NCBI GenBank assembly: GCA_958009085.1
Contig: OY253684.1
Location: 868,001-932,000 of the forward strand
Origin: Protoeuglena noctilucae
Lineage: Eukaryota
DNA: 64,000 nucleotides
Direction: 5' to 3'
Both the position numbers and the translations under genes were made by a program. Below the pieces are notes generated by a model. It had not been told where the DNA came from. It saw nothing but the letters and a program-made list of their open reading frames with translations, and did not search any database. This document shows, piece by piece, positions 933 to 40,600 of the stretch (positions are counted from its first letter, which is position 1; each line of letters begins with the position of its first letter).

Positions 933-2577
933 ATGGCGGGCGGATATGTCCAGCAAACGCTGCAAGCCGAGCTTGAGGGACCGGTGGTCGGTGAGGGCGT
1001 GCAGAGGGAGGACTTTTGTTGCATGAGCACCGGTTGCCTTCGCGATACTCAGGGTGGGTCAGGTCGCTTGCGCAGGGTGGGGCGACCTGCCCGGGGAGCT
1101 GCATCGCGAGATCCTGCGGCTGGTGCCGCTGAGCGACGCGACGGTGGCGCGGCAGGTGTCGCTGGAGATGCGCGACGAGGTGGACGAGGTGTGGAGGGCG
1201 TGGAGCATCCGGGCCACGGCGGAGGACAAGCGGATAAAGATTCGCAAGCATGTCACATTTCAGGTCCAAGAGGGTGCCCTTCACCACACCCCGCTGGTTG
1301 TGCACGCGCATGGCGGGTCGCATGCGCACCACCTGGCAAGCCTGGGGCTGTGGTGGCTGGCGGTGTTGGCGGCGGAGGCGCCGGACATCAATGGCTTCTC
1401 TTGGGCCGTGGATACGGACGGGGACATCAAGTAGTCGCCGCTGATGGTGGCAGTGCGGGCACTGCGGCCGGTGGGGCGCCGGGTGGGTGGCGGGGTGGAG
1501 TGGGCGCACGCGCTGGGGGATGGGGAGGTGGCGCAGATGGTGCGGGTGGTGGTGGGGATGGGCGCGGACGTCAATGGGCGGCTTGAGGAAGCCTTGCCGC
1601 TGATGACGTACTGCGCGGCGCGGGGTTGCGTGGAGGCGGTGAAGGCGTGCCTGGCAGCGGGGGCGGAGGTGGACGCGCCTGGAGACGACTATGGTAACTG
1701 GATGACGGCGCTGGTGCATGCCGGACGCGGGGGTCACGAGGCGGTGGTGGAGGTGCTGCTGGAGGCGGGGGCGTCGCCCACGGTTGGGGAAGGTGACGAG
1801 GATCACACCTTGGCGACGGTGTGCGAGGTTCATCCGACGCCGGGCATTGTGAGGCGGCTGGTGGAGGCGGGGGCGGACGTCAACGCTTGGGATGAAGATG
1901 GCTATCCGTCGATAGTCTATGCTTCGGAGCGTGGTGACCTGGCCTTGATGAAGGTCCTGGTGGAGCTGGGGGCCGACGTGAGGGCCACCACTGAGAATGA
2001 GAAAACCGCGATGCACGAGGCGGCATCTGCGGAGGTGGTGCGGTGGCTGGCGGCACGTGGGGCGAGCGTCCAGGGCGATGGGGTCAACGACTCCCCACTC
2101 CAGAGGGCATGCGCTTATGGCCGCGTCGACGCCGTCCGTGCTTTGATCGAGCTGGGCGCGGACGTCAATTACAAAGGCAGGGAACCTGCTACGGCTTACC
2201 GCCATAGGGGTGTGGCTCTCCGTTACGCGGTGCAATTTGACCACCCGGAAATCGCGGTGGAGATGACGCGGCTGCTGCTAGCGGCGGGGGCGGACGTCAA
2301 GGCCGTCGATGATGATGGCCAGACGCCCCTGCACTGGGTCTGGCATCCCGCGTGCGTCGACCTGCTGCTGGCCGCGGGGGCAGACCTGGAGGCGCGGCAT
2401 GGCAAGGGCATGACGCCCATCTGCGTCGCTGCAAGCGATCTGCCGCACAGATCCAAGGTGGTGCTGCGGATGGCCGACCGCGGCGCGGACCTGGTCAACA
2501 CGGGCGGGGAGGCGGGGATGGTGGAGCGCGTAGTGGCGGAGCTGCAGGCCGAGTACAGCGGTGGACAGGCAGACTGA
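933..2577 (+). pseudogene. F-box + ankyrin-repeat protein gene interrupted by one in-frame TAG (1432-1434)
   Basis: Exon 933-990 (MAGGYVQQ...), phase-1 GT-AG intron 991-1075, then F-box-like WGDLPGELHREILRLVPL...ARQVSLEMRDEV. ORFs 1054-1434 and 1444-2577 share a frame. About 10 ankyrin repeats follow (e.g. QTPLHW...LLLAAGADLEA, SPLQRACAYGRVDAVRALIELGADVN). Pseudogene status is uncertain because the stop could be a base-call error. Confidence 0.75.
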
Positions 2578-3237
2578 CCAAGCACGCACGGTGAGGGGAA
2601 AAGCGGGACAGAGTCGGCTTGTGCTGCAGCGTGCAGGTGGGTGCGATGGATGGGGCGTGGGATGTCGGGCATGGGTTGTGGATGCGTGAGTCGCCATATC
2701 AGCGGCCCTCGCCAATCGTGCACAGCCCAACCAGCCTGCCCTATGGGCCTTGTTCCCTCACGCAGGTGGCTCATCGCCACACTCGTCGACCCACCTAACC
2801 CACCCAATCCCATCTCTGCTCCGTGTCCCGTGCTCGCAGCAGCCCCAGCAGCTGTCAGTGGGCATCTGACCCCACGTCGAGCTTCGAGTCTTCCGAACTC
2901 TCCACGATGAGCTGATTAGTGAGTGGTGTGGGAGGTGGCAGGGCGTGTTTTGACGCATGACGCGTGAGCAAGGTCGTCTTTCGCCAACCCTATGTTGTGG
3001 TGTCGTCTCACTGTGTAAGCGAGCCATGTGTCGCAGTGCGTGGCGCAGCAGGGATTGAACAAGAGACGAGCCGTCCTGCCCACCAGCCTCCGACACAGCA
3101 CCGCGCACCCGTCATACACGTGGGTGCGTTACTGCCACCAACGCCCTGCTATGGCCAGGATGCGCTTTAACGAGGCTAGCCGCAGTCACTGCCACGCCTC
3201 GCCGTCTCATCGACAGTCTCCCTTTCTTAAGAGTAAG

Positions 3238-5627
<2,390 letters not shown>

Positions 5628-5946: not shown

Positions 5947-6610
5947 ATGGTGAGGGCGCGCGTCCTCGTTTGGCTGGGCGGCGCAAGCCGGCTCGGGAGC
6001 GTCCCTGGCCCTCCTCCCTTTCCTCGCTGGCTTCGCCGGCGCGTCTGCTGCACTCTGTCGCCACATAGCCCGGCAGGCGGGCCCTCGCGGGCTCCCCACG
6101 CCCCAGAGACGTCCTGTTTCCCACGGGCCCCCGCGGAGGCGCTCCCTGCGCTGTCCTTGCGCCCCTGTTGACTCTTGATTAGCTCCTTTCCCAGACCGCT
6201 GGCGCTGCGGGCCTCGCCGGGGCGCGGGACGGCGAGCACGCGGGCGTCGGTCCGCCCCGCTGCTCGCTCGTCCCCTTGCGCGCCGCGCCTCCCCCGTCCT
6301 CCCCGCCCGTCGCCCGCCCCACTTCCCCTCCCCAATTCCCTGCCGCAGCCGTCTAATAAGACCTTCCGGGTCAAGCGGGTGCTGGCCAAGAAGGCCAAGC
6401 AGAACCGCCCCATCCCCTACTGGATTCGCTTCAAGACGGACATGAAGGTGCGCGGGTCATTTGCGTTTGTCACAGACTTGCCGGGTCGCACGGGCGCGCC
6501 GCGCCGGAGCGTCCGCCCGCCCCTCGCGACCTGTTGCCGACGTGTTGCCGCTGCAGATCCGCTACAACGCCAAGCGCCGGCACTGGAGGCGTACCAAGCT
6601 GGGCATCTGA
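5947..6610 (+). CDS. RPL39: 60S ribosomal protein L39 (eL39)
   Basis: Exons 5947-5949 (ATG|GTGAGG), 6349-6447 and 6557-6610 give 51 aa: [51 protein letters not shown]. Confidence 0.97.
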
Positions 6611-6954: not shown

Positions 6955-9900
6955 CTACCGGTTCCCGGCCGAGCCGCCCCGCCCCACGTCCCCTCCCCTG
7001 GCGTGTGGCATCTCCCAGGGCCGCACCGACAGCTGCCGGAGGAAGGGGATGTCAGCCGCGGCCACGTGCCCGGGCGCGACGTCCATCGCCACGTTGAAGA
7101 TCTCGTGCATGAAGGCGCGTGCGGCACGGGTGTGGTAGCGGCGCTGTCCGGTGACCAGGTGCAGCTTGCGGGCCAGGCGGCGCCCACGGATGCGGACTTT
7201 GCAGAGGAGGCCCAAATCGACCTTCTTGGCCACTGCCGCGGTGCTGCGGGGTGGGGGGGAGGGGTGACGGTGGTGAGCACGTGCGGTGGGGAGGTGCGAG
7301 GGCGGTGGGGAGGTGGGGAATGGGAGAGAGAGAAGGGGAGAGGGGGGCAGTGGGCGATTTGCGATGTCACCTCCGCGCGTCTCGCATCGAATGCAGCGCC
7401 ACTCTCTACCCACCCCAGCACTGCACCCACCTCTGCTCCCCACCCACCCCACTCTCTACTCACCCCGCTCACCTGAGGAAGGCCACCCCCAGGTTGAACT
7501 GCACGGCGCTCTTGATGGCCTCGACGCTGTTTAGCTGCATGCTCTCTCGGATGCGGGACCAGTCCACGCCCGCGCTGGCGATGAGCTCGCGCTGCACGTC
7601 GCGCGTGTTGCTCTCGTTGTTCTGCGAGGGGAGTGGGATGCATGATGTCAGCTATCAGTGCCTCCTCTAATCTCATATCCTCTTACTTCATCCATCCCCT
7701 CTCCTCTCACCAGCGTGATGAAGTCGTGCGCACACAACCCCACTCCACTCATCCTCTCTCCCCATTCCCTCACCAGCGTGATGAAGTCGTGCGCGTACAG
7801 CTCCTCCACATCCACCACGCCCCTCTTCGCCAGTGGGTGCGCCAGACCCACCGCCATCACCACCTCATCCTCCGTGTAGGCTGCAGTTGGGATGCAGGGG
7901 GTGGCATGAGGTGCACGGGGTGTGGCATGCGGTGCTTGGTGATTGGCTGGTGGTGTTTACATGCTAGTCTTGACAACCAAGCATGTGTCGTTGTGCCGAG
8001 TCACTTGTCGCTCTTACCCACGGAGCTTAGCTGCCCCATCGTCACCTGGGTATCAAATTGATAACAATCGACACAACCCACTCCCTCACCCACGGAGCTG
8101 AGCTGCCCCATCATCACCTAGCAGTCAGATTGACAACAATCGATACAACCAATACAATCCACTCCCTCACCCACGGAGCTGAGCTGCCCCTCCAGGTGTG
8201 CGGGCACCCCGTTGGCGACGATGGCGGCGTCGAGGTCACCCCTGGCCACGCTCTCGCACACCGATGGGGAGTCGCCCACCGTCAGCTTGACGCTCACGCC
8301 GGGGTGGCGGGATTTGAATATCGACACCAGGCGGGGCATCAGGTACGTGCCTGGGGGGGCGAGAGAGATGGGGGTGAGTGGGGGAGGGGTATGACTGGGT
8401 GATGGTCGTCTCAAGCCACAACCCTCACCTCAATCCCCATGCAATGCTCGTGTCACTCCCCATCCCCATTCCCACACCTCCACCCCCCCTCGCCTGTCAT
8501 GTGCGATGCTCCCAGTCACATGCCACCCATCCCATGCATATCCCAAATCACCACATCTCGCCTGTCATGTGCGACGCCCCCAGGTGAATGGCCCCGATCT
8601 CCGCGGCCTCCATGTCTCGCAGCGCCACCACCGCCTCTGTGCACAGACGCAGCACGCGCTCAGCGAAGGGGAGCAATGCCTCTCCCTCCACGGAGAGAGA
8701 CGAGTAGTTGGTCTTGAGGCGGTGACGCTGGAAGAGACTGGGGGGGAGAGGAGGGTGGGGGGGGGTGAGGGGAGAGTGGGGGGCAGAGGGGTGTGGGGAT
8801 GGGATGGGAGGGGTGAGGAGGTGGGGTTGGGATAGAGTAGGGGGGGCTGAGGGGGGCGATGAAAAGTGGGCTTTGTGTTTGCCACTCTCGCACTCATCAC
8901 TCACCTGCACCTCCCCTCCATGCTCTTCATCGCCACCACCACTCACTCACTCACTGATCACTCACTCATCGCTCACCTGCACCCGCACCTCCCCTCCATG
9001 CTCTTCACCGCCACCACCGTCCCCGGTGATGTCATGCCCAGCGCCTCCGCCGCTCCCTTGATCGACTCCCTAGACGCGCATGCCAGAAACACCGCCAGCT
9101 CCTCCAATAGGAATGGCACGGGGATGGGCTCTTCCATGGTTGCTAGGAAGTCCTCCTCGGGGCGGTCACCGCCAGAGGTGCGGGGGGCACTGGGGGGGGG
9201 GAATAGGAGTGGGGTGGGGGTGTTGGTGAGGGGGAAGGGGGATGTGAGGGGTGTGAGGGGGGGGGGGGGGGGGTGAGGGGGGTGAGAGGGGGGGTGTGAA
9301 GGGAGAGGGTGTGTGAAGGGGGTGAGGGACGTCAAAAGGGGGATGAGGGTAGGAGGTGGTGAGAGAGGGCGTGAGGGGAGGGGTGAGTTGAGGAGAGGGT
9401 GGGGGAAAGCGAGCGCAACATAAGGCGTGGCCATAGCAGCGAGCCCACCCCTCACCGTCCCCCCCCTGGCCCCCCCTCCTCCTCCTCCCCCATCGTCACA
9501 CCGCGGAATCTCTCAGCTTCCGGCCTCAGCGCATCCAAATCGGACATGTGAGCCCTCACGTCCACCCCACCCCCCACCCCGCGCCACGCCCACCCCGCCC
9601 TCCTCACTCCTGCCCCCCCCGCATGCTCCCCTGATTGCCCCTCCCCCACCGTTGCAGCCTCGCCCACAATGCCGCTCCCTGCACCCCTCTCGCCCTCCCC
9701 CCCCCCGCCCCTCCACCGCGCTCTCCTCTACCTGACAGTGCGTGTCGCCACCCCCGGGCACCTCCTGGAAGCACTCTAGCACTCGGTCGCCTAGCGGGTA
9801 TCGCCCCACCACCTCCACAGCCGGCGTGGCATTACGTGAACGCCCACTGCCACCCATCCCACGCCCTGTCGCCACTAACAGCGCCTGCCCCTCTCGCACC

Positions 9901-12900
9901 ACCCGCGACGCGCGGGCTTCCCAGGCAAACTCGCGGCCATTTACGCGATCGCTGTCTTGCGACGAAACACTCTCTGACACGCCGCTCTCTGGCACTGCTG
10001 TCCCTGGCGCGACTGCCCTGTGCCGCGCGCCCTGCGCTGGGAGTGTAGCAGCGTCGGCGTGTGAAGCCTCGGCCGGCCCTCGCGCGGCTGCCGCCCCGTT
10101 GGTGTGAAACGGGACACTGGCGCCGTCTCTGGCAGTGGCGGGTGCCAGTCGGTGGGGCAGGGGGCGGGGAGGGGCGGCGACCTGGGGTCCCTCCTGGGCG
10201 GCAGACACGGGGGGGGATCAATCGCATTCATGTGATAGGAATTGAATGCATTCAGCGAGAGTAATGAAATGGAATGGGTCTCGTTTGACACACACGCACG
10301 CCGCCCACCCACGCTCCCGTACCTTCACGCCGTCATACCACCACACCATCACGCAACCATGCCACCATCCCACCCCTCGCCTGCATCTCCGTGGCCATCT
10401 CCCACATGGCCTCCACCAGCGCCGCCGCTGCCTTGGACTGGTACCTACGCTCGTTGGTCAGCATCAGGATGTGACGTGACAACTCCAGGCCCTCCACGCA
10501 CACCTGGGGGGGAATGGGAGACGCGAGATGGTACTGTTGTGACAATGCAAGAGCACTAGCATGTGCTGCAGCAGTAGTTGTGTCGCGCTGGTAAGCAGCG
10601 CATCTGACTTGCACCTCGCAACACTGAACAACAGCACACTCCGTCACGAACCCCAGTCATTCCCTCCCCACCCCCTGTCACCCACCTCCTTCAGCAGCCC
10701 CTCCTTGAGCTCCCTCATCGCCGCCGCCGCAGACACGAACGCCACCCCGATGCCCTCCTCCACGGCGTTCTTGACGGCCTCGACCGAGTTGACCTCGAAC
10801 GCCACGTGCAGCTGGGAGGCGTCCACGCCGCGACGGGAGAGGAGCTCGGACTGGCGGCGGTACACTGGGGGGGGAGGGGTGAGGGGGTGATGGGGGATAA
10901 GAGCTCGGACTGGCGGCGGTAGACTGGGGGGACGCATGCGTTGAGCGATCGACCACCCTCCCCGCATCGAGTGCATCTGTGTCACACTCACATCATCCAT
11001 GGACACGTCATGTGCAAGTGACTCTCACCCGACGAGTTGCGGTTGATGGACATGAGACAGCATGCGTGAGACTCACCGCAGCGACTGCAGTCGTGACACG
11101 CTCACATCATCCATCGCATGTGACACACACTCACCCGACGAGTTGCGGTTGATGGACACGAACCGCAGCGACTGGAGGTGCGATGCGGAGATGGGCCCCA
11201 TGGACCACACGGGGTCGTCGGGGGCACACACCAGCGCAATGCGATCGGACAGATACGGCTCCACCCTCACGCCGCGTGGCAGCACGGACGCGGGCACCAC
11301 GCCGCCCACCAGGGCAGCGTCGAGGTCGCCTGGGGTGGGAGAGGGGGGAGTGGGGTTGGATGGGGGTGAGGGGGGATGGGGGAGGGGGTGAGTAATACCA
11401 GCGGGGTGCGAGACTGTGGAACGAGTGTTGTGTTGGATACTGTTATCAGAGTTGGTCAGTCATAAGTACTCGCATGCGCACTTATAACATTGCATGTGCA
11501 CCTGTGCCAAATGCTCCCGTCACATACGCACCCCCTCCCCACCCCCCCTCACCCGATGCCACGGCCAGTGCGATCTTACACATCCATTCCATAAGCACCC
11601 CCCTCCCCCTTTCTCCCCCCCTCCCTCACCCGATGCCACGGCCAGTGCGATCTTGCACATCCACCCCACATGCACCCACCCCCTCACCCGATGCCACGGC
11701 CAGTGCGATCTTCCTCGTGCTCTCCACCGCCAGCTGCACCTCCACCCCGGGGTGTCTCTCCAGGAAGCGACGCACCAGGCGGGGCATCAACTCCACGCCC
11801 ACTGTCTGCGATTGGGAGGGGGGAGGGACTGGGTCACGAGGCATCAACTCCACGCCCACCGTGGGGAGGGCAGGGCGTAGGACTGGGGTAGCGACTCCTG
11901 ACATGGCAGGTTCAGCCATGTCAGGCTTACTATGCGCGCCTCACCCGCTCCCATCTGCCGCTCCCATCTGTCACTTTACTGCCTATCCGACCTTGCACCC
12001 ATCTCTCACCTCATCGCACCCCATCTCTCACCTGGCTGCCCCCCAGCCGCACCCTCCCCGCCCTCACGCTCTTGAGGTCCTCCAGCGCCGCCACTGCATC
12101 CTTGCACTCGGCAATCACCAGGGAACTGCGAGGAAGGGAACGAGCGACGCTGTCTGGCCTGTGGCAAGCATCGCTGTGCCGTTCTACGACTTGGGCCTGC
12201 AAAGATGACTCAGTAACTACTATTAATAGTCAGTTACACTCCCATTCCCACCCCCACCTCGCTACCACACTCGCCTGTGATAGCACAGCACAGCACCACC
12301 CCCACCCCACTCCCATGTTAATACTCGCCTGTAGTGGTACAGCACCACCCCCGCCTCGCTGAGCCTCCACGGCGGCATGGTGCGCGACCACAGCTGCACC
12401 CCCAGCGACTGCTGCAGCTTCAGCAGCCGACCGCGGAGGCAGTTGTGGTCCAGGCCCGACCACTCCGCCACCTGGGAGACAGGCGATAGATATGTCATAT
12501 GTCATGGACAACCACAATGCAATGCAATGCATGGGAAAGCGCACGCGCCAACACCCCCGCATGCACCCACGCACCTTGTACACCCCCCGCCGCTCCGCCA
12601 CCCAGTGCAGCGCCTCCAGCTGACTCAGCGAGAAGGGGTAGTTGCTCAGAACCGTGCCCCCGGACCGCAGCCGCAGCGTCGGCTCGGGTCCCGCGCTGGC
12701 GGTGCTTCCATTGGTGTCGTCGCCTGCCACTTCGCCCTCGTCTGGGCTGAGCCCCAACGCCCGGGCCGACTCCGCGGCAATCTCCGCGACCGCGCCATCG
12801 AGACGCGACAGCGACATGCGCTTCCGCCGCTTTCGCTGCACGGGGGGCGCGGGCGGGTGCGGGGGAGCCGCGCGGCCGGGGTCGTCGGCCCCCAAAGGGC

Positions 12901-13161
12901 CGCGCCCTCCCTTCAGGCGCACGCGCGACTGCCCGGCGCGCTGGACCTGGCCGGAGGATACCCTCGGGACGTCCCCCGTCGACGCCCTGGCGCAAGAGGG
13001 CCCGACTGCGGGCGAGCAGTCTGGCGGTTGTTGCGGGCCAGCTCGGGAGCGCCCGCGCGGACCGCTCTGCCTCCCGCGAGGGTCCCACCTCTTTGACGCG
13101 GTGGAGCTCGCCAGGTCTGACTCACAAGCGGCGCGCGGAGGCCCCTCCGCGCGGCGAACAT
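6955..13161 (-). CDS. rbcR: Nuclear-encoded, probably plastid-targeted tandem (double) LysR-type regulator of RbcR/Ycf30 type
   Basis: 16 exons with consistent phases: 13161-13089, 13005-12923, 12835-12575, 12471-12329, 12125-12032, 11805-11688, 11329-11135, 10864-10686, 10503-10381, 10193-9456, 9189-8977, 8737-8562, 8350-8171, 7880-7774, 7621-7473, 7243-6955. Unit 1: YPFSLSQL...LGGSQTVGVELMPRLVRRFLERHPGVEVQLAVESTRKIALAVASGDLDAALVGG...FEVNSVEAVKNAVEEGIGVAFVS...RRYQSKAA. Unit 2: VPFLLEEL...LGASHMTGTYLMPRLVSIFKSRHPGV...AYTEDEV...MQLNSVEAIKSAVQFNLGVAFLS...RRYHTRAARAF. The linker exon needs a 1-nt correction in a G10 run near 9697-9706. Confidence 0.88.
7706..7790 (-). repeat. Exon-end/donor echo repeat in LysR intron (period 63)
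   Basis: CTCACCAGCGTGATGAAGTCGTGCGC occurs at about 7706 and 7769. Confidence 0.95.
8016..8190 (-). repeat. Three-copy exon-end/donor echo repeat in LysR intron
   Basis: ACCCACGGAGCT(T/G)AGCTGCCCC at about 8016, 8088 and 8169. Confidence 0.95.
11548..11712 (-). repeat. Three-copy exon-end/donor echo repeat in LysR intron
   Basis: CTCACCCGATGCCACGGCCAGTGCGATCTT at about 11548, 11625 and 11683. Confidence 0.95.
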
Positions 13162-22727: not shown

Positions 22728-25700
22728 TCACTCCTCCGCCCCCCGCTTCCTCCCCCGCTTGGCCGCCGCCCTCGCCAGCTCCCCAAGCGGCGCCCCGGCC
22801 GCCTTGCGCCGCTTCACCTCCCCCATCTTCGCCCTCTCCGCCTCGCGCTTGCGGCCGTGCTTGCGCCGCCGCGCCTCCGCCGCCGCCGCCGGGTCCACCA
22901 CCGCCTCCACCGCGCGCCGCTGCCGCCTGGCCGCCCTCCTCGCCGCCACTGCCTCCCTCGCCCCCGCAAAAGCCGACAGCGTGGCATCCACGCCCATTGC
23001 CGCCCTCAGGTGCGAGTGCACCTCCTCCCCTAGGGATTTGATGTCCGCAGGGACACGCTGGGACCCCTCGTTGAGTCGATAGATGGGAACCATGGCCAAT
23101 GGGAGGTAAGGGGCGAAGCGCGATGGGCCCAGGGCAGAGCACGCGCCCGCCAGGAATCTGTGAAAGGGAGTGGGGGATGAGGGATGATGGACATGTGTGT
23201 ATGTGTATGAATGCATGTATGGATGGAAGTTGCAGTGGCTGCGTGATGCTGCAAACACATGCCAGCTACACCCACACCCACACCCACACCCACACCCACA
23301 CCCTCCCTCACCGCAGTGCCGCCATCCTCGCCGCCCTCTTCCCCCTCCTCCCGTCGTCCGCCAGCCGACACACGCGCCGCATCAGCCCATGCAGCGTCAC
23401 TCCCGCCTCCGACAGGCGACGCTGCCCACTCCCACTTCCCCTCTTCACATACGCACCCTCCCCGTCACCCTCCCCCTCCCTCGCCACACCCGCACCCGCA
23501 CCCGCACCCACTCCATCCTCGTCACCCTCACTGCCGCTGCCATCGCCACCCTCCCCATCCTCCCCCTCGCTGCCACCCTCCCGCCCCCCCTCCACCCCCA
23601 CCCCGTCCCTCAGCTCCCCCACCACTCCCAGCAAACACCGCACTGTGGCCGCACACCCCTCCTCGTCCTCACCGTCTGCCTCTGCCAGCTGCACAAACAG
23701 AGACAAAGCCACGCGCCCCGCCGCCCCCTCCGCCCCCAGCAGCTGCGACCGCGAAACCGCGTCCCCCAAACACCGCGCCACCACGCGCGTCGCCGCCTTT
23801 CGCACCCACGCATGCTCGTGGGCCAAACACGCCGCCGCCGCCTCCCAAGCCACGCTGGCCTCCTCCGGGCACGCCTCTGCCAGACCCGGCACGGACTCAG
23901 CCACTCGCTCCAACGCACACAGCGCCTGGTGGGCCGCACGCCAGTCCCCGCCCCCCTCCGCCGCTTCTGCTACTGGGGCCAGCAATGCGGGGATGGCCCC
24001 AGACGCGCGCCGCCCGAACGCCGCCCGCTCCGCCCCCGCAAACACCCCCACCAGCGCCGCCCCCGCCCCCCGCAGCCGCGCGTCTCTCGCCTCCGCCCAC
24101 GCCGCCGCCATCCCAAACAGCCGGTCGCGTTCCCCCGCAGGCAGCCTGGTTAGCAGCGCGGCGACGCACTCGGCCGCCGCAGCCCGGCAGTCGGGGTGCG
24201 TGTCTCCCCCCACCCTGGCAGCCAGCGGCACAAAGGTGAGCTGAGCGCGTGGGGCAAGGGCGGGGGCGGGGAACTTGGTGACGACCGCTTTCACCATCGC
24301 CAGCACTTCTCTCCTCCCCTCGTGGTGCTCGTAGGCGAGATTGGCGAGGAGGAACCTCAGGTGGGCGTCGAGTCGCTTTTCCCCCAAAGGGAAGTCCAGC
24401 AGGTATTGAAGGAGTGACCTTGCGCACTGGGCGCGCACGGTGGGGGACTGGGCCCTCACCATGAGCTCCTGCACTCGGTCCATGACGTCAAAGACCTCTG
24501 GGACCACGATCTGCGATGAATGAGGGAGATGGAGGTAGGGGATGTGACGAGGGAGAGGGAGGGAGGTGGGACGTGGAGATGAGAGAGATGGGATGAGCTG
24601 TAGATGAGAGAGGGAGATGAAATGGGCTCTATACAACAAGGAAATGGGACGAACGCTGTGCGCAATTGCACAAAGCATACCAGAGCACAACAGACAGCAA
24701 ACCGTCGTCACTACCCCCCACCCCACCCCACCCCAACACTCACCTGCCGTGCGACCATGGCCCTCAGCAGCGCCATCAGCGTCCCCCTCTCCGTGTGCTC
24801 TTCCATGTCCTTGAATGCCCACTTGAGCAGGAACCGCAGCTGCTGCGTCGACGGCTGGAAGTCCGCGCACTCCCGCAACAGCGACGTCAGCAGCGCCACC
24901 CCTTCCTGCGCCACCGGCTCTGTGCTCGAGGCACACCGCTTCATCGCAGCCGTCAGCGCCGCGCCCGCCTCTTTCGCCGCGGCGGGCAGCGACGGCAGCG
25001 GCAGGGGCGCCATGGCCTGCAGCGCGCGACACGCCAGAACCACGCAAGTCGCGTGGCGTGACCCCAGCACCCGCACCATCGCCAACAGCAGCGGGTCCAG
25101 CAACCCCAGCGTCTCCGCGTCGCGGCCGCTCAGCGGCCCCCGCCGCAGCGCCGCCACCAGCATCGACAGAGCCATCTCAACAAACGCATGACCGTGCGCA
25201 CCCCCCGCCAGCCCCGCCACCCCCTCCCCCTCCGTTTCTGCACTCGCGCCCCCCTCCGCCACCCGCCGCTCCGCCCGCGCCCCCGGCACCGCCCTCGCCG
25301 CCACCGCCACCCCCCTCCTCCCATCCTTGTCGGTCGTTCGGTCTTTGGCGACCGCCTCTGCCGTCCGCCCCCCCGCCCCCGCCGCCGCCTCCACCGCGCG
25401 CCTCTGCGCCTCCTCCGCCCCCATCCCCGCCGCCACCGTTCGGGCAACGAATCCCGCCAGCGCCGTGGCAGTCAGCGTGGGGCTGGACTGGGCACCCCGC
25501 GCCACGCACCCCAGCAGCTCCGTCACCCTCGCGTGCAGGGCTGGGTCGGTCCCCGCCTCCGCCAGCCGCCCTTTCGCGACCCCCACCAGCGCCCCGGCAT
25601 AATCGGCGAACGTGCACGCGGATGCCAGCAGCTGTAGGGTGTCTGGCGCCCTCGTTCGCTTGGCCTCTGCCGTTTGCGCCCTCACTTGGGGAGTGCGTCT

Positions 25701-28700
25701 ACCCTCAGTCGTCTCTTCGCTGAAAAGGTCCTCCTCCAGCATCGGCAGCAACACTGGGATGGCCTCGTCCAGGCATCCGGGGGGCTGGGGGGGAAGGGAG
25801 GTGGTGTGGGGTGAGTGGGGGAGATGTGTGGGGGGGAGGTGAGTGGCGTGGGGAAGGGAGGTGGGGTGGGGTGTGGGGTGGTAAATGCCACACTGACAGC
25901 CGTGCACATGCCATAACACAAGTGATCAAGCCAGCCCCAAAACACCCAGCCCCCTCCCCCTCACCGCCTCTCTGCTGAGCGCCGCCTCCACCGCCGCATG
26001 CAGTGCGTGCCCCCGCACATGAGCCGTGTACCCCCGCATGGGGAGGGCATACCGGAGCGTCTGTGCCACGAATGGGACGCAGTAAGGCCCAAGCTCGGCG
26101 CAGACCTGGGCCAGAGCACGTCGCGCGTCGTCCCGGACGTGCTGTGCGCGGCTCCGCAGCACGTTGCAGGCCAGCTGCAGGGCAGGGGGCAGCTCTGCGG
26201 CCTCTGCCGCGCGGGGCAGCAGCCGCAGGAGCTTTGCGATCGCGATGGCCACGGGGGCGCGGACGGTGTCGCCGGAAACCAACTCGGCACGCAATGCGGG
26301 GAGCACGCTGCGACGCAGGCGGTCTGCCACGGCACCACTCGCGCCACCCGTCTCCTCCACACCATTACTAATCACAGCATCAGCACCCTCCGCCCCTTCC
26401 CCGTCCTCATCGCCGCCCTCTGGGCCCCCATCCACACCCCCCCCTTCCTCTGCACCCGCGCCCCCACCACCCTCCACCACTCCCATATCCTCCCCCACGC
26501 CCTCGCCCTGCTCTGCCTCCGGTCGCATGAACCCCACCAGCGCCGCCGTCGCGTCCCCCTTCCCATCCCCAGCGCCCGCAACCTCCCCATCACCCCCCTC
26601 CCCACCCTCAAGTGCCGCCCTCACCGCCCCCGCCACATCCGGCCGTGCACCATCCCTGGCCCCATCCAGGAAATGGAAACTGTCCAGCACCGCGCACACC
26701 GCACGCAGCACTCGCTTGGACGCCTCCCGCGCCCTCCTTGCCTTGAGCAGTCTCAACTGCCGCATCAGTAGGGGCTCGTATTGCGCCCACGGCAGAGCCA
26801 GGGCCACTGCCCCCAGGCACCTGACTGCGGCCTCAGCCACGTTGGCCTCTCTGTCGACATCCTTGGCTTTCATGGGCACGCCGCCCTCCGCTGCCCTGCC
26901 CTCGAGCAGGCACTGCTCCAGGAGTGGGACGACCACGCTCAGCAGGGCGCCGGGCAGAGTGGCGGGGTCCTTGGGGAGAGAGGGGGCCAAGGCGTCGGCA
27001 TCTGGGGGGGTGGAGAGAGGAATGTGAGGGTGAGGGGGTGCGGGGGTGTGAGGTGAGGGAGAGAAGGTGCGGCTGAGAGGGTGCGACAGCGAGGCAATGC
27101 GATGCAAGGTTGAAAAGCGAGGGTTATAAGCAACAAACGTGTGTGCAAATGCAACAGCCAGGTCCCTAACAATAGCAATTTTCACCCATTCTCTTCCCTC
27201 CTCACCTCCCGCATCATTCCCCTCCCCTTCCTCATCGCCCCCCATCCCCCGCACATCCCCGCACGCCGCCCGCAGCCGCGCCGCCAGCCCATGGAACGCC
27301 CGCACCCGCCGCGACTGCTGCAGGTGCGTGGCGTTGGTCAGGAAACACCGAGTCTCGTCCGCGTCCACCAGCGCCGCCACAGTGGCCATAGACCCCGGCC
27401 ACTTCAGTGCCGCCCTCCGCAGCAACGCCGCACACTCTTGCCGCACCGCAAGGCTCGACGCCCCCAGCCCAGAGCGCAGCTGCGGGCCCGCCAGTCGCAC
27501 CACCGCCACTCCCAGCGCGTCCCCAGCACCAGGGTCACCCCCCGCATCCACCAGCCACTCCATCGCACGCGCCGCCCCCTGTCGCAACGCCAGATCCTCT
27601 GCCCCCCGCACGTCCCTTAGGCACTGGAACACCGCGGGCGCCACCCACGCACCCGGCAGGCCCCGCCACCACTCCCCATCCATCGCACGGTAGCCCCCCA
27701 GCCTGGCATCGTAGTCCGGCTCCCCCAGCCCCGCAGTTGCATTCACCGCAGCCAGCTGTGCCGCCGCTGCCTCCCCGCTCCCCAGCAGCCCCGCCAGCGC
27801 CGTCAAGCACCGGCACAGCGCAGTGCGCGCCTCGTCATGCCCCACCGACGCAAGCAGAGGGGCAAGGGAGCTGAGGTACCCCTCTATGCGCGCACGCGTC
27901 AATCGCCCACTCTCCGCGCCCGCACCCTCACGTGCCCGCAGCCCCGCGGCGCGCATCCCCGCCAACACCGCCGCCAGCGCAGACGCCGCCCTCCCCGTCG
28001 CCTGCCCTTGTCTCGGCAGCCCCGCCATTGCCCTTCCCCGCCCATCCCGCCTCCCCAGCAGCGCCACCAGTGCGTCCGCCACCCCCACCCCTCGCTCCTC
28101 GTCCCGTACCGTCACTCCCAGCGCCTCCAGCAGCCCCAGCTCCCGCAACGACCCTCGTGACCCCCGCCCAACCTCCCCCACCAGCCCCGCCAGCCACTGC
28201 AGCACGCGCCCTGCGTGTGGCTCCATCGCCCGCCGCTGTGCCTCTGTCACTCCCTCCTCTGCATCCCCGTCCCTCACCGCCCCGCTCCCCGCCCCCATCA
28301 GCCGCTCCGCCACCCCCAGCGCCGCCCCCGTGCTCTCCCTGCTCGCCCCCTGCATCCCCAACACGGCAAGCGCATGTCCCAGCACGCTCTGCCCCTGACC
28401 CTCTCCCAGCACCCCCGCCAGCTCCGGCCCCGCCAGCGCCAGCGCCAACTCCAAAGCTGCAGGTGGCCTCGTCGCCACGCACTCTGCCCCCAGCCGTGCC
28501 GCCATGGGCGCTGCCGCTGCCAGCATCGGGCCCCACAGCGCAGACAGGTCGGCGGAGGCCGGGAATCGCTCCAGCGCCGCGGCTAGGAGTCGCAGTGCCT
28601 GGACGCGGAGGTCGCGGAGGTGACGAGGGTCCATTATGGGGTCGGCGTGGAGTGACGTTGTTGTCGATGAGTCGATAGTGTGCTTGGCAACGATACTGGT

Positions 28701-31700
28701 GGGTACCGTTGTCGCAGCCGGGTGATCTGCACTAGAGTGGTTGGCGTCGGGCATCTGAAGAGTGCCGGGTAGGGCACTGGCGCCGAGTCTGAGCAGCGAC
28801 GTCACCGCAGCCATGAGCGGTGGAAAGAAGGGGGGCATGCGGTGACCCAGGTGGGCCAGCATGTCAGACACCGCGTGCAGTGCCGCGACGTGGGTGCCGG
28901 GGGGCAGTGTCGCTAGCGGAGTGGGGTCGAATGCCGCGAGCCACCAGCTGAGGGGGCGCGTGAGCAAAGCAGGGGCCCACCAGTGACCGGGAACAAGCGC
29001 GGTGTCCGATGACGCATCTGGGAATGGGGCGAATGGGGTGTCTGCCGCCTCTGCCGCTGCCGCATCCGCCAGCGCTTCCCTCTCGCGCGGCAGTGCGGGT
29101 GCGAGGGGTGACAGGAAGAGCTCTACTAGCGTGGTGAGCTCGTGGGGCGGGGCAGCTGCAAGGAAGTTGAGGATGGCCGACCGCGCTGACCCAGCCGCAC
29201 CCCTGCCGCCCAGGCGACCGGTGCGCTTGCGCATTTTGGAGAAGAGGAGGCGCGTCAGCACTGCGGGTGTGTGGGGGAGAGAGAGGGTTGCGGGGGTGGC
29301 AGAGCGGACCGCTTGTCACTATATGGTGCTTTACAGTTACCGTATCCCATACTCCATATACCATATACCATATACACCAATCCACACCACACGACACCCT
29401 CCCTCACCTGGCATGAGCCCCGGCCGGTGTTTGTCGAGCAGCCCCTCCTCGCCCTCCCTCGCCGTGGATGGCGCCAAGGGGAACGCCGCCAGCTGCTCCC
29501 TCAGCGTCTTGTCATCCGCCATCTTGACCAATCGATCCAGATGGGGACCCAGGAATCGAAGTTTGAATGGGCGCAGGGCCTTCAGGGCTGCCGCCTGCAC
29601 AGATCCGTCCCTGTCGCCCACCAGCCGCGCCACGGCGGCGCGGATGCGGAGGAAGAGGGGATTGTCGCGAGTGGATGGGACGGCGGAGAGGACGGACAGC
29701 CTGGGGGTGTGGGAGGAAATGGGGTGGGGATGAGGGAGGGGTGGGAGTGGCGTGACGGGCGGTGGTGGTGGGCGCAAGCGTGTATGCACTTGCAAGCGTT
29801 CATGGCGATTGCTCCCACACAAGCATGGATGTACTATATAAACAAGCACTGCTCTGATATGCATGTGCCCACTGCACGCACCAGTTCATGGCCCTTTGCC
29901 GCCACTCCCTCCCCGACAGCGACCGGCCCTGGCGACCCGTGTCCACCGCATCGATTGTAATGCCATCGCCTGCCTCAGCATCACCCTCGCCATCACCATC
30001 ACCATCGTTATCATCCCCCTCCTCCCCCTCTCCACCCTCATCCTTCCCCTCTCCCTCCCCCTCTCGCCCGTCCTCTCCCTCACCCCCGTCGCCCACCCCC
30101 GCCCCCCCACCCCTCGCCTCCAGCAGTGTCACCATCACCTCCCCCCAGTCCTCGGCACGTGATTGCAGCACGTTCCCGGGGCTCTGGGCCATCGCCGTCA
30201 GCAGCCACCCCAGTCGAGTGGAGGGGTCCGTGCACCCACCGGACGCACTCACGCTGCCCTGCCCCACCACCGTGGCAAAGCGGTCTAGGAGAGAGAAGGG
30301 CAGGGCGTGGTCGCGGAGGAGAGCCTGGGGGGGGGGGGGGGGGGGGGGGGTGGAAGAGGTGAGAGGAGGCGTTTAGAAGACAGGTGGTTGAGAGAGTTGA
30401 GAGAGGTGAGTGGGGAGGCGAGAAGGCGGCACGTGAGAGGGACAAGAAGGGCGGACAGTCAGACCATTTCACATCAGTAAGTATGTACTACGATACTGCC
30501 CCACACCGACGCTCATTCTCTCCCCTCACCTGCATTTGCATAACAGCATCTCCCACCCCCCCGCTGTCTCACCTGCACTTGCGTCCCTGCCCCCGCCACC
30601 CCCTCCCCCCTCAAAAACGCCCCCTGCGCCTCCTTCACGTGCCTCGCCACCACCCCCCACGCCTCGTCCCCCAAATGCCCCACCGCCGCTGCCAACGCCG
30701 CTGCTGCCGGCGCCCACAGCACCGCAAAGCGCACGTGCAGCACACCGCACAGGCCCCTAGCCACGGCACCCGCCAGCGACGGAGGCACTCGCTTGAACTC
30801 CACATCTGCTTTCAGCTGCCCCAGCGCCGCCACCCCCCTTCGCCCCGCCTCAAGGGTGCAAGGGCCCGCCTCCACTGCTAAGAGAGATGCGAACGCACGG
30901 CAGGGGCCATGGGAAGTGGAGGGAGCCTCGAAGCACGATAGCAGGCGCAAGGCCTCGACGCGCACTGCCTGGGAGGGGCTGTCGAGGTGGGTGAGCACGG
31001 CAGCGAGGGCAGAGTCGAACGTGCCTACCGATGCTGGAGGGGGGTGGCCGGACACACGGAGAGCAGTTAGGGGTGCGGATGCCATCCGCAGGGCGTGGAC
31101 GCTGCCCGGGTATGTGCGCGCGGCTGCGGCCCCCGCCTCCGCCAGCTGTTGCAGTGCTGCGGGGTCGTCTGCGTGACACGCGGCCATCATTCTCGCCACC
31201 TCCGCTGCCACCGCAAGCGCAGGCTCGGTGGCAGCCGGGGCAGCCACGGTGGCGCGGCATGCGGCCCAGGGGCCCTCGAGTGCGGATGCCAGGTGAGTGC
31301 GGTCGGGGAATGCATGGGGCAGGCACTGCAAAGCGCACCACGCCTCGGCCAGGGCAGACTGGTGCTGGTCACTCGCAGCAGCGGTGGGTGCGGACTGGGG
31401 CATGTCGCTCGTAACAGCAGTGGATGAAGTAGGCTGTTGCTGTGGTGCGCTGAGGGCGGTGGGGATGGCGTCCACGCACGCCCGCACGCGTGATGACAGG
31501 CGCACTCCCCCTGGCTGGGCCGTCAGCAGCGCGGGGACGCCCTTGCGACCCACTGCGGGTACGAGAGAGCTTAGACACGTTGTAGCATTGCTGGAATCCG
31601 CAGTGGCTTGGTCTACCTGCCAGTAGACACTCGCCCACTTGTCATGTGCATGTGACCCATCCGTGGCAGCGTGCTACCACCCCCACTCACCCTCCAGTGC

Positions 31701-37600: not shown

Positions 37601-40600
37601 GCCACTCATATGCATAGCTGGCACACGTTAACCTGCCACCCTTCCCTCGATGCCATCTGCATCACTGCTCTCTTCGCCCCTCACCTCCCTTTCCCACCCC
37701 ATGCCCTCACCCTCGCCGCAGTCACCAGGCCCCGACTCCCCGCCCCCGCCCGGTCGTGGCGTGGGCCGTGCGTCCATAGTTCGCCCGAGCATGCGCCTGG
37801 GCCGCCTGTCGATGCGCACGGCGCGGCTTCTGGAGACGCTGGCGGGCGTGGCGGAGCTGCGGGAGGGCAGGCTGCCTTGGGGCCGCAGCACACCCCTGGA
37901 GCGCCTGATGGTGATTGGGTGCCTGAACAACGAGGCGCGGGTGCTGGCGGAGGATGAGGAGGGGCGGAGCGAGGGCGACCGTCGAGATGGTGACTCTGGG
38001 AAGCAGGGTGACGGAGACGGGCAGGGTGACAGGGAGGGGCAGGGGCCGGGCGACCCAGGGACCGTCAAGCTGTCCGGCAACGCCACCGACCAGGGCATCC
38101 TGCGGTACTGCATGGGCGTCATGGACGTGGACAGCACCAATCGACAGAACCCCATCACATTCCGGCTGCCCTTCAACAGCGTCAACAAGTTCGCTGCCGT
38201 GGTGTGCAACGCGGGAGAGGACGACACCGTGGATGGGCCCCCCAGGCAGCTGATGCTCATGAAGGGGGCCCCGGAGTACGTCATCAAGCGCTGCGACAGG
38301 TGACGGGCGCACTGCGAGCGGGGCTGCCACCGCGGGTGCCTTCACAATGCCCGACCCTTCACAATGCGTCCCTTGTGCGGTGGTCTGATGCACAGGTACC
38401 TCAGCTGGGGCAACGAGGTGCGGCCGATGAACGAGGCGTATGAGGAGGAGATGATGGCTGCCTACGAGCGTTGTGGGCTGGCGGGCGAGCGCGTCATTGG
38501 CCTGGCCTTTAAGCACGAGGGTGACGCTGGGTCAGGGGACTGGCAGTCGTGCGTCAGGGTTCAATGCTGGCAATCTCTTTCCTTCCTCGTTAGCCAAGTT
38601 GCTGAAGACTCATTTTTGACCTCCACTACGCACGCAGAGGCTCGCAACCCTCATGAGTGGGGCGAGGCGTGCAAGAGTGGCGAGGTGCTGCAGGGGTTTG
38701 TATTCACGGGCCTCATCAGTCTTGTGGACCCACCCAAGGTCGGCGTCATGGAGGCAGTTCTGCAGGTGGGGATGCTCGGCGACCGCTGCTTGGGGTGGTA
38801 GCTTGTTTGGGGTAGTGGTTGCAATGGTAAGCATGGCGACACAAGGACCTCACACCGTCTTGGGCCTCTCTGTGCCCCAGTGCCGCACGGCGGGCATCCG
38901 CGTCGTCATGGTCACCGGCGACCACCCCCTTACGGCCGAGGCCATCGCCCGCAAGGTCGGCATCATCACCAAGGCGAGTGCTGGCGCCCTCCGCTCGCAC
39001 AGGGCCAGGCCTGGCCGCACTGTGCAACTGTCGGCTCTCACAGCCGCCGCCCCTTATGTTTTGCAGAAGACGCCCGCCGAGCTGTCCAAGGAGGATGGCC
39101 GGCCGGTGGACATCAGCGACGAGCGTGCCCGCGCCGTGGTCATCCCGGGGTCCCAGATCGTTGAGATGACGACGGAGGAGCAGTGGGACGCGGTGCTGAC
39201 GAAGGACGAGATCGTGTTCGCGCGCACCACGCCGCAGCAGAAGCTCGAGGTCAGCAGGGCGGGGGCGAGGGCGGCAGGCGGGGCACATGCTGCGGGGCGG
39301 GGCTGGCATGCTGGCGGGGGCGAGGGTGGCAGACAGCGGGGTCGCTGAGCGGCGCTGTGGCCTGCACTGAGCCCGGCATTGTGTCATCAGCCATCTCACA
39401 AAGCCCCGCCTCGCTCGCAGATCGTGAGCAACCTGCAGCGGCTCAAGGAGGTGGTGGCGGTGACGGGCGACGGCGTGAACGACTCGCCGGCGCTGAAGCG
39501 CGCCCAGGTCGGCGTGGCCATGGGGTCCCCGGAGGCCAGCGACGTGGCACGCGACGCGGCCAGCGTCATCCTGCTGGACGACAACTTTGCGTCCATCGTC
39601 ACCGGTGAGGGGTGGGAGGGTGGCCTAGGGGGCAGAGGGCAGAGGGGCGGTGAAGCAGCGGCAGAAGCTAAGCTACGGCAGACACGAGCGATGAGCATGA
39701 GACTCTGCGAGCGCCGAGCCGCCCACCACCCCGCAGGCATCCGGGAGGGGCGCATCCTGTTCGACAACCTGGTCAAGACGGTCACCTACACGGTCACCCA
39801 CCTGGTGCCGGAGCTCGTCCCCGTCTTTCTGACCATTGCCTTTGGCTTCCCTCTCGGCATCACGGGTGGGGCTCTGTGCCGACCAGTGCGGGTGTCTGCA
39901 GCATGAGTGGCTCTGCTGAGTGTTTGACTCAGCCACCCGCTCTCTCGTCCCCCCCAGGTCTTGGGATCATCCTCATCGACCTCATCACGGAGCAGGCCCC
40001 CGCCATCTCCCTGGCCTACGAGCCTGCCGAGGCCAGCGTCATGGAGCGCCCCCCGCGGGACATGAAGCGCGACCGCCTGGCCTCGTGGCCCGTCATCCGC
40101 TACGCCTACCTCATCGCCGGGCCCTGGCAGGCCGTCCTCGCCCTCATCGCATATTTGATTGTTTTTTGGGAGCACAACATCTGCATCGCGGACTACGTCG
40201 CCTTCTCTGGCACACACCACTTCCAGCCCCAGCCACACAACAACCGCCCATTCACCACGCGGTCGGGTCTTCTCGTGACGGGCGCGGACCAGTCGAACCT
40301 CCTCGGCCAGGCCCAGGCCGGTGCGTGGCAGCAGCTGGCATGTGTTGGACGGTGGAGTGAGTCCTGTTGTGATCCAGCGTTGGTGCTTTTCCCGCAGCGT
40401 GGTGGCTTACCATCATTTTCTGTCAGGCCTGGCACATCTGGATCTGCAAGACGCGGTTCGTGCCCATCACCTGGAAAACATCCCGCAAGCACTTCCGCAA
40501 CCCGGTCACGTGGCTGGGCATTGCCATCGAGCTGTTCGTCATCTTCGTCTTCATCTACGTCCCGAAACTCAACGTGAGCAAGCATGGGATTTCTCGCGCC

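Follow-up and report, generated by a model that had tools for sequence, protein, structure and literature searches.

Accounts of plastid transcription in the green lineage usually invoke nuclear sigma factors together with RNA-binding proteins; bacterial ligand-sensing factors are, to our knowledge, regarded as kept only as plastid genes of red-lineage algae and of a few early green branches. Here we describe a nuclear gene encoding two LysR-type units related to one such factor, Ycf30, and to cyanobacterial RbcR. It lies on a 64,000-nucleotide stretch of Protoeuglena noctilucae, probably a green alga (assembly GCA_958009085.1, contig OY253684.1, positions 868,001 to 932,000; hereafter the window). 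An excerpt of a 2021 review has Ycf30 activating rbcL-rbcS-cbbX in the plastid upon illumination, and an excerpt of a 2022 review places Ycf30 in plastomes with form ID Rubisco. As far as the excerpted text of Lemieux (2007) goes, the plastid DNA of Chlorokybus was, among the green plastid genomes available at the time, the only one with rbcR, a gene also carried by Cyanophora, by red algae, and by plastids of red origin. The preliminary description of this locus had likewise named Chlorokybus as the exception among green plastids. That statement agrees with Lemieux (2007) but is incomplete, as Prasinoderma coloniale has a plastid copy: its RbcR-like protein P0232 bears the plastid-type accession YP_009057498.1, so that Chlorokybus is not alone among green-lineage plastids in having kept rbcR.

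Among the papers returned by our searches, only a 2016 census touches on this point. In its excerpted portion, nuclear LysR genes numbered zero in Chlamydomonas, Emiliania, Tisochrysis, and Phaeodactylum, and one in Nannochloropsis. The excerpted text of a 2026 paper sets the CCM1 system of green algae against the LysR repressors of cyanobacteria. Full-text literature searches of article main texts returned nothing on green algal nuclear RbcR-type genes or two-unit LysR proteins. The two-unit family is unstudied rather than unseen: its public sequences carry automatic names only.

A spliced nuclear gene with two LysR units

Each exon was translated and scanned singly against Pfam. Two collinear sets of matches to PF00126 (HTH_1) and PF03466 (LysR_substrate) ran across the exons. 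Unit 1 matched PF00126 positions 32-59 and PF03466 positions 15-51, 56-113, 121-170, and 175-206; unit 2 matched PF00126 positions 1-43 and PF03466 positions 19-63, 77-108, 112-155, and 159-204. LysR-family matches at E<=0.1 came from 11 of 14 exon pieces (best E 1.6e-9), and in this per-exon scan the N-terminal extension, the short exon 4, exon 12, and the linker exon gave none. Such a collinear double match is far beyond chance. Both units have the order that marks Pfam LysR membership, an N-terminal HTH_1 followed by LysR_substrate, and they are 33% identical to each other. The bacterial-type LysR domains reported earlier are thus confirmed by Pfam, with the addition that there are two complete tandem units, a point not stressed before. 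The effector domain of RbcR/Ycf30 proteins opens with a conserved stretch, GASQTTGTYLMPR, which is invariant in alignment A1. At this place the sequence reads GASHMTGTYLMPR in unit 2 and GGSQTVGVELMPR in unit 1, both in keeping with the RbcR/Ycf30 form.

The coding region, defined from open frames and RNA contigs, occupies 6955..13161 on the minus strand, from an ATG at 13161 to a stop at 6957-6955, which upholds the location first proposed. In RNA contigs the 3' end reaches at least 6700. The model, of 16 exons, was assembled manually on the evidence of open frames, GT/GC..AG sites, and phase. Exon 1 (13161-13089; the ATG plus 24 codons, with an Arg/Ala/Ser-rich start) is predicted and requires intron 1. 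Exon 2 (13005-12575) encodes the N-terminal extension, basic then acidic, and the start of the helix-turn-helix (HTH) of unit 1, which continues through exons 3 (12471-12329), 4 (12125-12032), 5 (11805-11688), 6 (11329-11135), 7 (10864-10686), and 8 (10503-10381), its last. Exon 9, a low-complexity linker, runs from 10193 down to at least 9723, with an RNA contig over 10192..9723. A G-rich stretch (9722..9560) separates it from exon 10 (9549..9456, 5' border provisional), and a one-base move of frame is needed to cross from one to the other. Exon 10 holds a linker motif, and its donor at 9456 is in phase with exon 11. Unit 2 is encoded by exons 11 (9189-8977, including the HTH), 12 (8737-8562), 13 (8350-8171), 14 (7880-7774), 15 (7621-7473), and 16 (7243-6955), the last also holding the C-terminal tail and the stop. 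As HTH plus effector domain, unit 1 spans 12649..10381 (exons 2-8; phmmer envelope residues 144-451) and unit 2 spans 9128..7075 (exons 11-16; phmmer envelope residues 22-332), followed by the tail at 7074..6958. Exons 1-8 sum to 1356 nt, and exons 11-16 with two carry-over bases from exon 10 sum to 1116 nt; each is a multiple of 3 without an internal stop.

RNA evidence was drawn from contigs of four marine metatranscriptome runs of a single study, each holding 14-37% of the window's words; four further sequencing runs contain 98-99% of them. Eleven splice joints were found, in contigs without one letter differing from the window. On the unit 1 side these are 12471|12575 (joining the donor of exon 2 at 12575 to 12471), 12125|12329, 11329|11688, 10864|11135, 10503|10686, and 10193|10381; on the unit 2 side they are 8737|8977, 8350|8562, 7880|8171, 7621|7774, and 7243|7473. 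Given after the cut shifts listed by the alignment tool, all 11 positions coincide with borders of the predicted model, and the gene is therefore transcribed and spliced in nature. Three of the 11 verified introns (12328..12126, 10380..10194, and 8561..8351) are GC-AG, all with the donor CAG|GCGAG; for comparison, the excerpted text of a preprint gives 14-17% GC-AG introns in GC-rich pelagophytes. With spliceosomal introns and spliced RNA in metatranscriptomes, the LysR gene is of nuclear type, as the preliminary description had held.

Its count of 15 introns stands in most places. Beyond the 11 seen in RNA, intron 4 (12031..11806) gave no joint in the contigs of the four runs and is backed by the reading frame and by relatives that read 'SQTVGVELMPR' straight through. 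Intron 10 (9455..9190) is supported indirectly: its joint is not itself in RNA, and a 1545-nt contig that carries all of unit 2 departs from the genome precisely where the acceptor is predicted and has 6 letters left over. Intron 1, in contrast, is predicted only, and a canonical intron is absent from the join of exons 9 and 10 (9723..9560). The RNA contigs do not extend over 9191..9722 or the first exon and intron, which counts neither way. In two runs the unit 2 contig had a greater word depth than the contigs of unit 1, and in a third the same depth; word depth is a measure that cannot rank parts of the gene.

The introns themselves contain repeats, missed by Tandem Repeats Finder and detected by a direct repeat search. 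Between 7690 and 12360 in the window (introns 3-6 and 11-14), most introns carry one or two extra copies of their own exon/intron junction, slightly diverged, 22-69 nt long, and 57-114 nt apart. The donor junction is copied in introns 3, 4, 5 (3 copies), 6, 11, 12, 13 (3 copies), and 14, and the acceptor junction in introns 4 and 6. Wherever RNA shows the joint, the copy adjacent to the exon is the one used. This pattern would fit introns that grew or were born when a splice junction was duplicated in tandem; it would also fit decoy sites.

Two-unit relatives and affinity to RbcR

The same architecture was found on a 13-kb metagenome contig of 70% G+C (L001). There, unit 1 lies in several exons and is followed, at the homologous place, by a phase 0 GC-AG intron (3121..3255; donor CAG|GCGAAG). 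From there a single open frame (3256-5039) covers the linker, in which the motif is ADLEALRPEAER, and then unit 2, which has no intron and shares 50% identity with unit 2 of the window. The linker motif region of this contig is 3471-3524.

We used unit 2 of L001 (P0004) as the query of an exhaustive, profile-free protein search, which returned 46880 proteins at E<=0.001, 77 of them reaching E<=1e-30. The top matches were proteins of 823, 773, 832, 762, 588, 862, and 735 residues, each matched in two or three stretches, and the next was a 565-residue open reading frame with unit 1 only. The 762-residue cluster includes A0A061RBL0 of Tetraselmis sp. GSL018 (843 residues, transcript-derived), automatically named 'Probable RuBisCO transcriptional regulator' in UniProt; the 588-residue protein is CAG9466870.1 of Pedinophyceae sp. 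YPF-701, a partial two-unit form; and the 862-residue two-unit protein is an MMETSP transcript marked complete. Nearest to the window is P0152 (823 residues), in which unit 1, a linker with LEIQALRPESEQ, and unit 2 share one frame. HTH_1 and LysR_substrate each occur in two stretches in every one of the four complete relatives, and the window has the same two-unit chlorophyte layout with an RPWE-type C-terminal motif, its frame break at 9723..9560 aside. The three named nuclear relatives (Tetraselmis, a pedinophyte, and Picocystis) are all chlorophytes, and it is from them and from the tree that we take the organism to be a green alga; its GC-AG introns had also brought a haptophyte, pelagophyte, dinoflagellate, or Micromonas origin into consideration. 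The preliminary description saw a regulator preserved in a green alga; the architecture also occurs in Tetraselmis, a pedinophyte, and picoeukaryote-like contigs, so it is not a lone case. Narrower searches returned less: a one-exon query of a word-indexed protein search found only three proteins, and the picocyanobacterial RbcR P0012 as query found near-identical variants only, none with a plastid name.

Conservation is uneven between the units. Among seven two-unit proteins, about 71 columns are invariant in unit 2 and about 25 in unit 1 (one row is without the start of unit 1), and the best HTH_1 stretch fell in unit 2 for all four proteins with both HTH_1 stretches detected. The RPWE tail, at 7023..7012 in the window, is common to all seven relatives with an available C-terminus, with RPWA in one form. 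The linker motif is ALRPEAE-like in the group that includes the window and [YF]PHL..R.P.L.EL in the group of the 773- and 832-residue proteins.

Bit scores were compared between the window units and a set of 183 unit sequences, including 118 other LysR representatives. For unit 1, the best cyanobacterial RbcR scored 201 bits (35.7% identity), the best plastid or plastid-like Ycf30 162, and the best other LysR protein 132. For unit 2, RbcR of Gloeomargarita scored 226 bits (40.5% identity), the best plastid or plastid-like Ycf30 180, and the best other LysR protein 159. Prokaryotes were also scanned, one genome per species, with an alignment of unit 2 proteins and picocyanobacterial RbcR, whose conserved effector-domain stretch served as a pattern. 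This gave at least 600 matched stretches and at least 574 encoding relatives; the best 80 of the 574 were all Cyanobacteriota, led by a small margin by two Gloeomargaritales. As the patterns favour RbcR, the scan shows where the motif lives and not the absence of other relatives. In a structure-atlas search by structure, a cluster in which eukaryotes (mostly Rhodophyta) make up 52% came first and a cyanobacterial one second, both of which we treat as leads only; searching the atlas by features gave generic LysR clusters only.

A tree was inferred with an IQ-TREE quick search (LG+C20+F+G4; 70 rows, 11 short rows dropped), with support from the Shimodaira-Hasegawa-like approximate likelihood ratio test (SH-aLRT). 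A 58-row ingroup of RbcR/Ycf30 type was separated from 12 other LysR rows with a support of 100. Within it, cyanobacterial RbcR and plastid Ycf30 formed a clade (99) that includes Fibrocapsa japonica YP_010444217.1 and the Prasinoderma sequence. Unit 1 of the window grouped with P0152 (99) and then with the pedinophyte unit 1 (95), and unit 2 with L001, P0006, and P0152 (99), while the Tetraselmis-type unit 1 stood alone on a long branch. Many tree rows are of unusual composition, and for this reason two approximately unbiased (AU) tests were run. A topology uniting nuclear, plastid, and crown cyanobacterial rows without Gloeobacterales-type rows was not rejected (p 0.668) and was 7.9 log-likelihood units better; nor was a topology with all unit 2 rows as a single clade (p 0.586). 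A single transfer from the plastid ancestor and a single old duplication would thus be compatible with the data, though neither is proven.

Two further sets of LysR proteins appeared in this work. Single-unit RbcR-like proteins (P0159, P0160, P0162, and P0166) branch with the nuclear forms; the P0162 cluster contains Picocystis sp. ML proteins, and P0166 has a Lys-rich N-terminal extension of 140 residues. Two other two-unit LysR proteins (P0225, 625 residues, and P0266, 619 residues) fall outside the RbcR group in a FastTree analysis, with their own units as sisters, suggesting that tandem LysR fusion may have arisen repeatedly.

Taken on the 100 SH-aLRT grouping and on bit scores of 201 and 226 against 132 and 159, the RbcR/Ycf30-like identity proposed in the preliminary description is borne out. 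In the tree, the units did not branch with the 12 other LysR rows, an outcome that the preliminary description had named as refuting. We therefore assign RbcR/Ycf30 identity and ancestry to the gene with high confidence.

Probable fusion, possible plastid targeting, and competing explanations

Whether the two units form one polypeptide depends on the linker. RNA splices exon 8 onto the linker exon through the GC-AG intron 10380..10194 without a stop codon, and the linker-exon frame is open to 9516, with a stop at 9513. Exon 10 contains SDLDALRPEAER in phase with exon 11, and its motif DLDALRPEAER (9543..9511) is conserved in three relatives. The intervening 9560-9722, where the frame shifts by one base, is G-rich and of low complexity, with runs of 8-10 G. 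Formally, 662 GT/GC..AG pairs join the linker frame to exon 10, none with a C-rich acceptor tract; the 14 modelled introns have such a tract, and the stretch 9722..9560 is without one. One donor, CAG|GTAGAG at 9732, was tried for this join and dropped because an RNA contig reads 9 bases through it. All formal joining introns that keep the frame open are 3n+1 in length, so that one extra base in the assembly would act alike. Runs of 8-10 G are homopolymers of a kind often miscounted in assemblies, and the frame break may well be an error of this sort, or else a cryptic or odd intron. Because the two-unit form recurs in relatives as a single frame or transcript of 762-862 residues, a fusion protein is the best reading, and we regard fusion into one polypeptide in this organism as likely.

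The N-terminus bears on location. Intron 1 is predicted as an 83-nt GT-AG intron (13088..13006; GAG|GTGGGA ... CCCGCAG|TC). With it in the model, the first 40 residues comprise 8 Arg, 6 Ala, 5 Pro, 3 Ser, 1 Asp, and 0 Glu; without it, the sole in-frame Met is at about 12815 and the start is acidic. The preliminary description quoted an Arg/Ala/Ser-rich N-terminus with no acidic residues. The richness and the lack of Glu stand, but one Asp occurs within the first 40 residues, and the start needs the predicted intron. About 145 residues precede the HTH in the window protein, a basic part and then an acidic stretch. L001 has a 185-residue extension in an open frame from a Met, also basic then acidic, and the extensions are 73-95 residues long in P0153, P0161, P0157, and the protein of Tetraselmis. 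The first 40 residues of seven sequences (six distinct proteins) hold 4-12 Arg and 0-2 acidic residues, so that all seven have transit-peptide-like composition, with the window's own start depending on intron 1. In an AlphaFold model of the relative P0153 (mean predicted local distance difference test score 78.7), residues 1-69, 377-440, and 752-773 are disordered and two units are well folded. Green algal transit peptides look like such extensions, and mitochondrial presequences look alike; between plastid and mitochondrion, Arg-rich green algal presequences are not separable by eye. Judged from these sequence features, a plastid location of the protein is plausible, and we lean towards it with caution.

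These observations can be joined into a model. The gene would derive from the cyanobacterial RbcR/Ycf30 of the plastid ancestor, through an old tandem duplication and fusion. Its product, of about 900 residues, would consist of a basic, acid-poor extension, a divergent unit 1 with a weak HTH, a disordered linker with its motif, a canonical unit 2, and the RPWE tail, with the extension acting as a chloroplast transit peptide. LysR proteins work as tetramers assembled from dimers, their ligand pocket lying where the two lobes of the effector domain face each other, and full-length LysR tetramers are among the fold matches of the P0153 model. In the stroma the two units might accordingly pair as a covalently linked LysR dimer, two chains making up the usual tetramer. 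Unit 2 would supply the conserved DNA-reading head and effector pocket, unit 1 having drifted, most of all in its HTH. The fused protein would bind plastid DNA under the influence of stromal metabolites, most plausibly upstream of rbcL or other carbon-fixation genes. By analogy with Ycf30, RbcR, CmpR, and CcmR, we infer metabolite-dependent binding to plastid DNA; rbcL as the particular target is a speculative suggestion and rather improbable. Our overall best explanation, a nuclear, expressed, fused plastid regulator derived from RbcR/Ycf30, is one that we favour on balance and no more strongly than that. Its fullest form, in which marine chlorophytes kept the regulator by moving it to the nucleus as a fused RbcR pair, imported into the chloroplast as an asymmetric dimer in one chain, with one DNA-reading head conserved and the other degenerate, that couples carbon-fixation transcription to stromal metabolites, is tentative and on present evidence doubtful. 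If true, it would describe a ligand-gated, bacterial-type transcription factor that acts in the plastid yet is controlled by the nucleus, and that Chlamydomonas and land plants would lack.

Several observations weigh against the favoured explanation. In the free tree the nuclear proteins stand beside the clade of cyanobacterial and plastid sequences and not within it, and the clade of most unit 1 and unit 2 rows has a support of only 83. For endosymbiotic transfer, as put forward in the preliminary description, the AU test does not reject nesting of the nuclear rows in cyanobacteria (p 0.668), a placement that the free tree does not show. With P0004 as the representative relative, no NCBIfam equivalog was reached: LysR_Sec_metab scored 150.8 bits against a cut-off of 250, and CbbR of the Rhodobacter type 130.9 bits against 450. 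Both HTH regions of the window protein diverge from the LysR consensus, with the HTH_1 match of unit 1 under the Pfam cut-off (E 0.036, 14.5 bits) and that of unit 2 (exon 11) at 28.8 bits against a cut-off of 26.6. No spliced joint for intron 1 was found in the RNA contigs of the four runs, and one contig of run X4 crosses its acceptor unspliced; this contig says little because X4 also has plainly intronic and unspliced pieces. Finally, the extension of the window protein includes a KRRKR stretch that could, we presume, equally be a nuclear localisation signal, and exons 9 and 10 lie in different frames, such that a literal reading of the DNA gives two open reading frames with no canonical intron between 9723 and 9560 to join the linker exon to exon 10.

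Some of these points suit an alternative in which the same protein has another place or job, in the nucleus, in mitochondria, or as a metabolite scaffold that no longer binds DNA; RbcR ancestry would then tell little of its present function. KRRKR, the weak HTH regions of the window protein, and the ambiguity of Arg-rich presequences between plastid and mitochondrion all agree with this. The basic stretch is, however, not conserved as Lys/Arg in P0153 and P0161, whose extensions contain no Lys, and HTH_1 occurs twice in all four complete relatives, at 71-78 bits in total. LysR proteins also need bacterial-type promoters and contacts with RNA polymerase, which plastids provide. We consider such a reassignment rather unlikely.

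The frame break lends itself to a different explanation, that the fusion is broken in this organism. Unit 1 and the linker would end at the stop at 9513, and unit 2 would start from the ATG at 9549 or from an ATG before the HTH, the products arising from one dicistronic mRNA or from two mRNAs. Beyond the change of frame and the missing canonical intron, this accounts for an ATG two codons ahead of the conserved linker motif, and a prokaryote-style call of the relative P0006 likewise begins at a Met just before the motif. L001 and P0152, by contrast, are without that Met and read through in one frame, and unit 2 alone would be without an N-terminal extension. The break itself falls in miscount-prone G runs, and a single-base change restores one frame. 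We therefore judge a broken fusion unlikely. One might also suppose that the gene is a bacterial contaminant or came recently from a bacterium outside the cyanobacteria, since LysR proteins are overwhelmingly bacterial, as the 46880 matches at E<=0.001 illustrate. This is refuted by the splicing evidence, with eleven spliceosomal introns verified in RNA; the flanking genes are eukaryotic (UTP20, ankyrin, and a HYDIN-like domain), and the best 80 of 574 prokaryotic relatives are all cyanobacterial, leaving this origin extremely improbable.

Genomic setting and comparison with known systems

Open frames neighbouring the LysR gene lie at 25926-29315 (-), 24711-25925 (-), 1435-2577 (+), 39672-40577 (+), and 55473-57068 (-). 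Matches among the neighbouring frames were to UTP20, ankyrin repeats, the C-terminus of a cation P-type ATPase, and a HYDIN/PapD-like flagellar domain. The UTP20 match is one uninterrupted frame of 1129 codons, and long uninterrupted frames of this kind indicate that intron density varies greatly along the window. A frame at 6557-6610 (+) stands tail to tail with the LysR gene, whose RNA contigs run past 6700 towards it; it may be the end of ribosomal protein L39. At 56001-60000, G+C is 77-79%, as against 62-71% elsewhere in the window, and many long frames overlap on both strands.

A nuclear, probably plastid-directed RbcR in several chlorophyte classes would offer a testable metabolite route to the expression of Rubisco and carbon-uptake genes, and would concern ecologically important marine picoalgae. 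In its fused form the protein would also serve as a natural test of how LysR units assemble, with a heterodimer that is forced and of which one half is divergent.

Ycf30 of red-lineage plastids (e.g. Cyanidioschyzon merolae) is likewise a LysR-type protein of cyanobacterial RbcR descent, and it shares with the window units the motif around GASQT.G.YL.PR. It is plastid-encoded, with one unit of about 310 residues and no presequence, whereas the window gene is nuclear, with about 15 introns, two apparently fused units, an N-terminal extension, and the RPWE tail, at 28-34% identity. The gene thereby falls outside RbcR/Ycf30 as defined by a single unit of about 310-330 residues encoded in a plastid or cyanobacterial genome. 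Cyanobacterial RbcR is the best prokaryotic match of both units and has identical domain order, but is a single unit that forms homo-oligomers, in contrast to the two-unit window protein.

Structurally, the nearest solved protein is full-length CcmR of Synechocystis (5y2v; sequence E 2.3e-23, and Foldseek E 3e-20 with the P0153 model), and the CmpR effector domain with ribulose-1,5-bisphosphate (PDB 5z49) is also a fold match. Excerpts of the literature describe CcmR/NdhR and CmpR as metabolite-sensing regulators of cyanobacterial carbon uptake. CcmR and CmpR are further off than RbcR, at 86 bits against the 114-bit floor of the best 150 representatives.

The other two-unit LysR proteins of green algae are built in the same order, from the extension through the two units and their linker to the RPWE tail. 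The window copy is far more intron-rich, unit 2 being intronless in L001 and in the 773- and 832-residue forms, and its HTH regions are more divergent than theirs.

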